Virus record (IMG/VR): IMGVR_UViG_3300029171_000001
Length of the DNA: 64,000 nt
Direction: 5' to 3' (one strand)
From: a virus
Position numbers and translations under genes: made by a program. Each line of letters opens with the position of its first letter. Position 1 is the first letter of the stretch. Shown here one piece after another: positions 3,226-36,354 of the stretch. The notes beneath the pieces are model-generated. The model saw only the letters and a list, made by a program, of their open reading frames with translations. It was not told the DNA's origin and made no database searches.

Positions 3226-3301
3226 CGGTCCTAGAGGGAGTCGAACCCTCGTTCTGCCCAGATAGACAGTCTGGTTCCCATCCCAGTGGGCTCATAGGAC
3301 C
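3226..3301 (-). tRNA. tRNA-Asp(GTC)
   Basis: CCAGA-CTGTCTA-TCTGG, G73. Confidence 0.9.
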
Positions 3302-3436: not shown

Positions 3437-3521
3437 CGGGAGTGAAGGGACTCGAACCCTCGACCTCTGCCGTGACAGGGCAGCATTCTAGGCTTGCGCC
3501 AACCAACTGAACTACACCCCC
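3437..3521 (-). tRNA. tRNA-Asp(GTC) with D-loop GCAA hairpin
   Basis: CTGCC-CTGTCAC-GGCAG; D-loop GGC-GCAA-GCC. Confidence 0.88.
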
Positions 3522-4066: not shown

Positions 4067-4153
4067 AAGTGCTGTGGGTTTTGGAGTACCCACAGCTAAA
4101 TTTCCCAATATGTCAAAGATCTCATGTTATTTTTTACCTGAAATAACCAAAAC

Positions 4154-4184
4154 AAAAAACCCGCTCTTTTTAGGGAGCGGGTTT
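4154..4184 (-). terminator. intrinsic terminator of attenuator 1
   Basis: AAACCCGCTC-CCTAAAAA-GAGCGGGTTT followed by TTTGTTTT, between leader and first tRNA. Confidence 0.9.
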
Positions 4185-4214
4185 GTTAATTCCTTTTGTT
4201 TATATCACTTGTTT

Positions 4215-4346
4215 TTATCCAAGCTTTCTAAAAGTCAAAACATATCCGCTCCCATAGCTATAATCATAAGCTGGGGCATACCCTGCACCGCCCATCATCG
4301 GGGCAATTGCTGGAGTAGTTGCTGAATATGTAGTTACTGTTTTCAC
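4215..4346 (-). CDS. leader peptide MKTVTTYSATTPAIAPMMGGAGYAPAYDYSYGSGYVLTFRKLG (GTG start)
   Basis: Hand-translated 43 aa; Pro/Ala/Gly/Tyr/Asp-rich; contains GGGAGCGG complementary to the terminator arm. Confidence 0.8.
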   Translation of the reverse strand: MKTVTTYSATTPAIAPMMGGAGYAPAYDYSYGSGYVLTFRKLG

Positions 4347-4426
4347 CTGTTTTATTTTCTTTTAATTGTTAAAACCTATTTCTAGGTTCTTTTGATAAAT
4401 AGTAGAAAAAATTGTTTTTCGATAAT

Positions 4427-4455
4427 TTATACGTACAAAGATAGAATAAGTTTCA
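4427..4455 (-). promoter_or_regulatory. promoter TGAAAC-N16-CGTATAA with embedded TATCTTTG
   Basis: Near-identical ~48-bp block repeated at 31109-31156; TAnnTTTG is the Bacteroidetes -7 element. Confidence 0.75.
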
Positions 4456-27550: not shown

Positions 27551-27811
27551 TTATTGATAATTTTTGCGATAAATGCAGACATATTTTACATCATTTTTTA
27601 AATGATCAAAAAAATACTTTTCACATTGTTTAAATGTACCAATTTTCACTAATTCATCAGAAAACATCTCATAATATAAACCATATTTCCCATCTTCTCT
27701 TAAACGAATATAGGCATATCCAGAACCATTACTGTCCTTATTTTTTTTAAAACAATAACTAACCTCATTTAAGATTATACTTTCTTCAATTACAATATCT
27801 TTCTTTTTCAT
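27551..27811 (-). CDS. hypothetical protein
   Basis: 86-aa ORF abutting trpS. Confidence 0.65.
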   Translation of the reverse strand: MKKKDIVIEESIILNEVSYCFKKNKDSNGSGYAYIRLREDGKYGLYYEMFSDELVKIGTFKQCEKYFFDHLKNDVKYVCIYRKNYQ

Positions 27812-28551
27812 TAATTTTTATTACCAAACAACTCCACCATTCTACGAGCAATTGCCTCTTTAAGTTGCAAATTTAATGAAAATTCTTGAATATCCAAACC
27901 CAACTCCCTGGCAATCATCTGTATATTTTTCAAACCTTCTTCATTCATGTTTGCTTTTTTTATCTTTCCCATATAATCTTCATCAAAAAGATATAACACA
28001 TGTTTTTCACCATCTGATTTTGACATTTTCTTCGTAGGGTCAATCAACGACATTACCTTATCCACATGTCCAAACTCATATGTATAATCATCTCTACCAC
28101 CAACACGCTTACAAATATCGTTTGCAAGCTCTATATGAGCAACCTGGTCCCTGCCAACAATAATTATGTCTGGATCATTCATCATAATATCAGCTGCCAT
28201 TAAAACTGGGTATAAAAGCAAACCCATGTCGTACTCAACCTTGTCTTTTTTATCTTTATACTGAGGCATCTTTAACAGTGTAGCAATATTTACCTTGCAG
28301 CAAAGTTTGAAAAAAAGTTCTGTATACAAAGGTGTTTGGTGCACAATTTTTTTGCACCCCAAACGAATAAGCTCTTGTTCGGTTTTATCTGAATAACTAT
28401 CGGTTGTCAAAGAATGATAATTGGCAATCAAAAAAGTAACATCATGACCTTGTTCTTGTAACTCAAGACCTTTTTTAAGACAACCTAGATAGTTACCTAT
28501 GTGAAGTTTGTTAGTCGGTTGAATGCCGATTAATATTTTTTTTGTTTTCAT
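27811..28551 (-). CDS. trpS: tryptophanyl-tRNA synthetase, compact (246 aa)
   Basis: GIQPT..LHIGNY, YPVLMAADI, VG.DQ..H.EL, KKMSKS; start re-set to MKTKK because the ORF-track extension lies in a tRNA. Confidence 0.93.
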   Translation of the reverse strand: MKTKKILIGIQPTNKLHIGNYLGCLKKGLELQEQGHDVTFLIANYHSLTTDSYSDKTEQELIRLGCKKIVHQTPLYTELFFKLCCKVNIATLLKMPQYKDKKDKVEYDMGLLLYPVLMAADIMMNDPDIIIVGRDQVAHIELANDICKRVGGRDDYTYEFGHVDKVMSLIDPTKKMSKSDGEKHVLYLFDEDYMGKIKKANMNEEGLKNIQMIARELGLDIQEFSLNLQLKEAIARRMVELFGNKN

Positions 28552-28553
28552 CG

Positions 28554-28638
28554 CACGTCGAAGAGGATTCGAACCCCTGTGAGACCTAAGTCTGCTGGTT
28601 TTGGAGACCAGTGCTATCAACCACTCTGCCATCGACGT
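28554..28638 (-). tRNA. tRNA-Trp(CCA) with long variable arm
   Basis: CTGGT-CTCCAAA-ACCAG, A1:U72, G73, AGAC-TTAG-GTCT arm; ends 2 nt before the trpS ATG. Confidence 0.88.
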
Positions 28639-36282: not shown

Positions 36283-36354
36283 AGATCCATGTCGGGTTCG
36301 AACCGACGACCTTGGCTTTTAGAGGGCCTTGCTCTGCCGCTGAGCTAATGGATC
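36283..36354 (-). tRNA. amber suppressor tRNA (CTA anticodon)
   Basis: GATCCAT/ATGGATC, U73, GCTC/GAGC D-stem, loop CTCTAAA, 3-bp anticodon stem plus mismatches. Confidence 0.8.

Follow-up and report, generated by a model that had tools for sequence, protein, structure and literature searches.

Introduction

The closest described systems are the leader-peptide attenuators of enterobacteria, such as those of ilvGMEDA (Ile/Leu/Val), ilvBN and thr (Thr/Ile), together with trpL and hisL, in which the genes under control are preceded, downstream of their promoter, by a short open reading frame, with a multi-amino-acid tract in cases such as ilvGMEDA and thr. The alternative pairings of their four RNA segments (1:2, 2:3 and 3:4) end in an intrinsic terminator, and a stalled ribosome frees segment 2 of the leader RNA. 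Masking of segment 2 by a ribosome terminating at the leader stop codon is typical, if not universal, among attenuators. Control of this type is also known for a translation-apparatus gene, in that the pheM leader of Escherichia coli pheST attenuates the phenylalanyl-tRNA synthetase operon in response to decoding of the cognate codon. The T-box riboswitches of Firmicutes use tRNA status to select a terminator or antiterminator upstream of translation-related genes, and bind uncharged tRNA directly without participation of a ribosome.

We know of no tRNA gene that is under leader-peptide attenuation. Large phages often carry tRNA arrays, and both the reason for carrying them and the timing of their expression are debated, with proposed explanations that include compensation for codon usage, evasion of host defences directed at tRNAs, and host shut-off. 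A full-text literature search recovered no publication on leader-peptide attenuation of tRNA genes or of phage tRNA arrays, and one paper (PMC3082878) mentions a tRNA operon only in passing. E. coli pheV was considered as a precedent with a Phe leader and rejected, as MG1655 shows only a promoter region of ~100 nt and no leader ORF. Attenuator control of tRNA genes would be a new use of known leader-peptide attenuation, for which we found no published description.

We describe here an element in a window of 64,000 nucleotides, the whole stretch of viral DNA that was analysed (IMG/VR record IMGVR_UViG_3300029171_000001), that we interpret as a multivalent leader-peptide (ribosome-mediated) transcription attenuator gating a tRNA array of a freshwater giant phage. 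We give this interpretation a probability of about 0.82; it rests on computation alone, and regulation has not been demonstrated. The element shares with the enterobacterial attenuators the short ORF, the multi-amino-acid tract and the three alternative pairings, and stalling is likewise predicted to free segment 2. It departs from them in that the genes under its presumed control are tRNA genes and not biosynthetic enzymes, so that the quantity sensed would also be the product, in that each leader would sense five to eight amino acids, and in being phage-borne, with a Bacteroidota-type promoter and no Shine-Dalgarno sequence. Like pheM it would represent leader-peptide attenuation of the translation apparatus, but pheM controls a synthetase, senses a single amino acid and is cellular. 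Unlike a T-box it would act through the ribosome, and no T-box motif is present in the window; a whole-window Rfam cmscan returned tRNAs only at gathering thresholds, with no Thr, Leu, Trp, His or Phe leader and no T-box.

Results

Organization of the element

The features of the element, in the order in which they would be transcribed, are as follows.

4474-4426, minus strand: putative promoter cassette, a 49-nt block identical to 31156-31108 of a second element at 31 kb
4347-4425, minus strand: A-rich 5' UTR of 79 nt, without a Shine-Dalgarno sequence
4346-4215, minus strand: leader ORF, GTG start, 43 codons, stop codon TAA at 4217-4215
4313-4242, minus strand: regulatory codon tract (codons 12-35), with 19 of 24 codons for Pro, Ala, Gly, Tyr or Asp, plus two for Met
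4277-4269, minus strand: segment 1 (protector strand), GCCCCAGCT, Ala-Pro-Ala codons 24-26
4253-4246, minus strand: segment 2 (antiterminator strand), GGGAGCGG, codons 32-34
4184-4147, minus strand: intrinsic terminator from a terminator scan, with hairpin 4184-4157, an 8-nt loop and the tail TTTTTTGTTTT
4180-4173, minus strand: segment 3, CCGCTCCC, comprising the 5' arm of the terminator and two bases of its loop
4066-3993, minus strand: first tRNA gene (Pro), ~90 nt after the terminator
4066-197, minus strand: tRNA array, Pro(UGG) x3, Asp(GUC) x3, Tyr(GUA), Ala(UGC) x3, Gly(UCC) x3 and Gly(GCC) x2

The assignment of 4474-4426 as a promoter is inferred from consensus only. The -7 box TATCTTTG at 4443-4436 fits the Bacteroidota-type TAnnTTTG motif, with a TTG ~20 nt upstream, and we infer a transcription start near 4430-4425; a Bacteroidota host is likewise no more than an inference from the -7 consensus. 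The same promoter motif is found upstream of all five leader families in the relatives described below. Unrelated metagenome contigs that have no tRNAs (L045-L050, L053-L056, L059, L063-L070 and L073) share the pattern TGAAAC-N8-10-CTTTGTNCGTATAA, which is consistent with a putative general host-type promoter consensus, probably of Bacteroidota, rather than one peculiar to the phage. A third, slightly diverged copy of the cassette, with a spacer one base longer, lies at 37722-37690 on the minus strand upstream of Cys/CUA-suppressor/Cys tRNAs (36435-35761), and no codon-matched leader of this kind follows it.

The leader ORF and its codon tract

The preliminary description of this locus had proposed a GTG-started leader of 43 residues beginning MKTVT, and we find this ORF on the minus strand with the N-terminus (M/V)KTVT. 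It had also described the leader as absent from the ORF track; the ORF listing used here recovers 4346-4215. The N-terminal peptide MKTV.TY.A is conserved.

The composition of the tract is highly unusual. A recount agrees with the 19 matched residues previously reported for codons 12-35, and relative to the background of Pro+Ala+Gly+Tyr+Asp (0.236 among 94,266 residues, taken from the long ORFs of the window and of two relatives) the binomial probability of this match is 1.4e-8. None of 87,018 windows of 24 residues in long ORFs has 19 or more matched residues, the maximum being 16. The 407 kb also contain 7,397 small stop-to-stop frames, and 17 or more matched residues are reached in none of these except the leader and its orthologue.

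The match extends to the anticodons of the downstream array. CCA and CCG are read by Pro UGG, GGC and GGT by Gly GCC, GGA and GGG by Gly UCC, TAT by Tyr GUA, GAT by Asp GUC, and GCA by Ala UGC; the Ala codons GCC and GCT are readable by the array only through extended four-way U34 wobble. Five codons of the tract are unmatched by the array in the window (Ile, two Met, and two Ser AGC), and as judged from their sequences the relatives account only for Met. We regard the two Met codons as probably regulatory too, because the relatives have two putatively corresponding Met tRNAs farther down the same strand; in the relative G001 the array continues to Tyr, Met and Met on that strand, with no terminator-like site on it in between.

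The tRNA array

The array was previously described as serving exactly Pro, Asp, Tyr, Ala and Gly, and this holds within the window once the ARAGORN calls are corrected and additional Rfam matches are included. The calls 'Ser(aga)' and 'Gly(acc)' correspond in Rfam alignments to Asp(GUC) and Gly(GCC) with D-loop insertions of 13-14 nt, and three further Rfam tRNA matches are an Asp-type at 3226-3301 and Gly UCC at 467-540 and 774-836. Two small ORFs are interspersed in the array, which may continue past the window edge.

Several minor features accompany these genes. D-loop insertions of 11-14 nt are present in the tRNAs at 375-459, 774-836 and 3437-3521 (Gly GCC, Gly UCC and Asp GUC), and the tRNA-like genes at 467-540 and 3226-3301 are weak. 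Between the terminator and tRNA-Pro the motif TTTGACATATTGG, at ~4116-4104 on the minus strand, is conserved in diverged relatives, and is followed by a 9-bp hairpin (GCTGTGGGT/ACCCACAGC, 4096-4071) that ends 4 nt before tRNA-Pro; relatives have a hairpin of another sequence, AGCTAAC/GTTAGC, at the matching position. The motif and hairpin together (4116-4071) may serve in processing or provide a second point of control. Between 4147 and 4066 there is neither a promoter cassette nor a TAnnTTTG box.

The terminator and its alternative pairings

The terminator starts 30 nt downstream of the leader stop codon, and its 10-bp stem, composed of seven G/C-rich core pairs and an A:U extension, has a hairpin energy of -15.9 kcal/mol. 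The preliminary description held that GGGAGCGG is complementary over 8 bp to the terminator 5' arm and can alternatively pair with the Ala-Pro-Ala codons as a protector hairpin, and the first pairing is borne out by sequence comparison and RNA folding, while the second is predicted by folding. GGGAGCGG is the exact complement of CCGCTCCC at 4180-4173, the predicted 2:3 duplex (-18.8 kcal/mol) is equalled in only 5 of 1000 dinucleotide shuffles of the ORF (p=0.005), and the 8-bp helix is present in the minimum free energy (MFE) structure of a transcript cut just before the terminator 3' arm. The GGGAGCGG:GCCCCAGCT pairing is seen in MFE folds, and as long as segment 3 has not been transcribed, segment 2 is paired with a probability of 0.78, mainly with segment 1, in a predicted structure of nine pairs with two bulges. 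This 1:2 hairpin is less clearly predicted in a diverged orthologue, where the probability that segment 2 is paired is 0.47.

Folding of the full transcript at equilibrium gives the terminator a probability of 0.98, and it is favoured at almost any ribosome position; the sole position that lowers its probability, from 0.98 to 0.62, has the ribosomal A site at codons 26-27. The decision must therefore be kinetic. Dominance of the terminator at equilibrium is expected for an attenuator; the kinetic choice is an inference, and the equilibrium scan of ribosome positions can neither decide a kinetic switch nor discriminate its direction.

The position of the stop codon is a further point of difference. 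Segment 2 is separated from it by 27 nt here and by 23 nt in the diverged orthologue, compared to 4-14 nt in families 2-5 (see below). In contrast to trpL, the 27-nt gap is too long for the terminating ribosome to mask segment 2, and the element therefore depends on the predicted 1:2 hairpin.

Five leader/array pairs

Via the promoter motif we reached two phage contigs in IMG/VR that are related to the window, G001 (154 kb) and G002 (189 kb), with CheckV completeness of 59% and 74% respectively. We scanned both, together with the window, for the promoter motif and for tRNAs, and located leader/array pairs of five families. These are listed with the fraction of leader codons that the family's own array can read under strict wobble rules and the corresponding background.

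Family 1 (the 4-kb element): tract Pro/Ala/Met/Gly/Tyr/Asp; array Pro, Asp, Tyr, Ala, Gly; fraction 0.50, background 0.22
Family 2 (the 31-kb element): tract RSWSWRRSSSSSR; array Ser x3, Arg(UCU), Trp x2; fraction 0.50, background 0.11
Family 3: tract LRSLRALFLVQVLFVLF; array Phe, Val, Leu, Arg(ACG); fraction 0.44, background 0.17
Family 4: tract QQQQQQ; array four Gln tRNAs; fraction 0.25, background 0.03
Family 5: tract MLMNNLHTTKTTTIKHNICINKTL; array Asn, His, Thr, Lys, Ile, Met, Leu(UAA), Cys; fraction 0.72, background 0.38

The 5x5 matrix of leader codons versus array decoding is diagonal, with a summed log10 P of -22.7. The correspondence discriminates between Arg isoacceptors, in that a leader with AGA/AGG precedes the array with Arg(UCU) and a leader with CGC/CGT the array with Arg(ACG). 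Diverged orthologues of all five families were found on viral and metagenome contigs, each again followed by matching tRNAs, so that the comparison of leader content with array content that the preliminary description had suggested gives a diagonal match in five families and repeats it in their orthologues. Its proposal that the 31-kb element works by the same mechanism with another set of amino acids is similarly sustained, both elements being among the five pairs of the diagonal matrix. The element has no match among GenBank phages by blastn, nor does a neighbouring protein by tblastn.

The sister attenuator at 31 kb (31156-30905, minus strand) has MKTVT followed by 13 consecutive Arg/Ser/Trp codons, and its segment GAGCCAGG pairs with the terminator arm CCTGGCTC. 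Its terminator is separated from the Ser/Arg/Trp array by a 125-residue ORF, and at the end of that array there is a TrpRS gene (27811-28632). The five gated arrays together cover 19 amino acids (G001 and G002; L024-L041), and no tRNA-Glu was found on G001 or G002, both of which are incomplete.

Conservation and covariation

Comparison of family-1 leaders shows conservation of amino-acid class with drift of the peptide. Two diverged variants (L042, and L075-L077) read ...PAMPMNGLGNGYAPADY... and retain the same set of amino acids, the two Met codons among them; their start codon is ATG, in place of the GTG of the window. In the close orthologue in G001 the sole difference within the ORF is an in-frame 3-nt deletion of ATT, and outside of it there are a 33-nt UTR indel and several substitutions in the promoter spacer. 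Translation from the GTG is supported by this in-frame deletion and by the ATG at the equivalent position in relatives, and the pattern as a whole indicates putative selection on translation and codon class, not on the peptide product.

The pairing potential is also maintained. The diverged family-1 relatives have a different, non-homologous terminator with the arm CTCGTTTC, and at the homologous codons their leaders have GGAACGAG or GAAGCGAG, each of which forms eight pairs with CTCGTTTC, one of them G:U. We compared these pairings as duplexes sequence by sequence and discarded a column-wise covariation count, because the terminator of the relatives is non-homologous and the pairing register is shifted by two columns. 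In family 2, GAGCCAGG:CCTGGCTC is replaced by GAACCAGG:CCTGGTTC, a compensatory change of G:C to A:U that leaves the leader peptide unaltered. In four of the five families the 2:3 duplex reaches significance (p=0.001-0.017). Its leader strand is always located just 3' of the tract, and it is G-rich in families 2, 3 and 5; the antiterminator pairing of family 4 is weak (p=0.13).

Occurrence in metagenomes and RNA libraries

DNA of the phage lineage is present in aquatic, freshwater, wetland, wastewater and plant-associated metagenomes from 13 studies. Contigs of the lineage from metatranscriptome assemblies cover 4105-4301 (197 nt, with two differences), 4099-4297 and 4193-4338, and in two wetland runs contigs spanning leader and terminator are the only matches in the first 12 kb of the window apart from short tRNA matches. 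These are assembled Logan contigs that lack information on transcript ends and strand, two of them cross the terminator, and carry-over of DNA is possible. They are compatible with an abundant leader transcript and provide weak support for it.

Discussion

The interpretation of the element as an attenuator is supported because the leader/array matrix is diagonal, the composition of the tract is kept despite drift of the peptide, the pairing is kept with a different terminator, and the ORF is under coding constraint. Less favourable to it are the GTG start without a Shine-Dalgarno sequence, the unmatched codons of the tract, the wobble required for GCC and GCT, the distance of segment 2 from the stop codon, the dominance of the terminator in equilibrium folds and the weak antiterminator of family 4. 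Translation itself, the stall-dependent choice of pairing, the read-through response and the physiological signal are all inferred. In the proposed mechanism, transcription would begin at the shared cassette and a ribosome would start on the 43-codon leader. With rapid decoding of the Pro, Ala, Gly, Tyr, Asp and Met codons the ribosome would clear the tract and segment 2 would fold onto segment 1; with segment 2 sequestered, the hairpin at 4184-4157 would form and RNA polymerase would halt ~90 nt before the first tRNA gene. When the aminoacyl-tRNAs are scarce, the ribosome would stall in the tract and cover segment 1, with the best positions at about codons 19-27, a range that assumes a footprint of ~15 nt on either side of the A site. 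Segment 2, now free, would capture the terminator 5' arm as it emerges, no terminator would form, and transcription would read through into the Pro-Asp-Tyr-Ala-Gly tRNAs, plus Met in the relatives. The accumulating phage tRNAs would then relieve the stall, giving negative feedback. The ribosome would probably be reporting that infection has depleted the host tRNA pool, through host shut-off or anticodon nucleases for instance, although this too is an inference.

There are several other explanations to consider, of which the one that we find merely unlikely differs only in its signal. The same switch could respond to amino-acid starvation through tRNA charging, the leader then reporting how well several amino acids are supplied, with the array as one output of a general starvation response. 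A stalled ribosome reads aminoacyl-tRNA only and cannot distinguish a missing tRNA from an uncharged one, classical attenuators do respond to charging, and another array in the same window includes a TrpRS gene. However, extra tRNA offers no relief for amino-acid starvation, and the match at the level of anticodons, with AGA/AGG paired to Arg(UCU) and CGC/CGT to Arg(ACG), is better explained by sensing of isoacceptors. It is very unlikely that the logic is reversed, or that the leader acts as a timer, such that efficient translation of the tract promotes read-through with positive feedback. Nothing specific speaks for such an arrangement, beyond the fact that equilibrium folds leave the direction of the switch undecided, whereas 30 nt separate the stop codon from the downstream terminator, too far for a translating ribosome to melt the hairpin, and the location of a competitor of the terminator just 3' of the tract, sequestered by codons of the tract, is the geometry of stall-induced antitermination.

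More doubtful still is the proposal that the leader simply encodes a small protein and has a terminator of its own, the array being transcribed from a separate downstream promoter and the composition reflecting coincidence or a shared bias. The conserved TTTGACATATTGG could belong to another promoter or processing site, and MKTV.TY.A is conserved as a peptide, both as such a gene would allow. But the composition is unique among all frames tested, five independent leader/array pairs fall on the diagonal, in the orthologues the peptide is altered while its set of amino acids persists, as does the pairing, there with a different terminator, and the interval 4147-4066 has neither a promoter cassette nor a TAnnTTTG box. 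We give scarcely any credence to a T-box-like, protein-independent riboswitch that binds tRNA directly and in which the ORF is incidental. The choice between terminator and antiterminator upstream of translation-apparatus genes is what such a riboswitch would present, but the whole-window cmscan found only tRNAs, binding of six tRNA species by one RNA is implausible, and the in-frame indel, the conserved position of the start codon, and the retention of composition without conservation of sequence all point to translation.

If the attenuator interpretation is correct, expression of the array is conditional on a failure to decode exactly the matched codons, and the question of when phage tRNA arrays are expressed becomes testable with simple reporters. 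Attenuation, familiar from amino-acid biosynthesis and from a small number of synthetase genes, would then extend to tRNA genes and to viruses, and codon tracts would provide a rule for annotating transcription units of phage tRNA arrays from sequence only. A broader proposal, towards which we lean only slightly, is that these phages possess a phage-wide regulon for decoding capacity, in which at least five attenuators with one type of cassette partition 19 amino acids, each sensing scarcity of its own set of tRNAs. Host tRNAs would in that case be replaced only when and where they run short, such as after cleavage by anticodon nucleases or host shut-off, and product feedback would hold each set of tRNAs at a working level.

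Additional features of the tRNA genes

The tRNA at 36283-36354 has a CUA anticodon (amber suppressor, labelled 'Pyl' by ARAGORN), yet the long ORFs are open under code 11, and a tRNA with a CUA anticodon is also present in G001 (81480-81552). In the relatives, a spacer of ~120 nt between two Phe tRNAs of the Phe/Val/Leu array is conserved and apparently structured, and the array also has an ORF resembling HNH-type endonucleases and a tRNA-like gene that an insert of ~60 nt interrupts; the loci for these features are 1010-1130 and 1871-2005 in L005 and 1020-1140 in L004.
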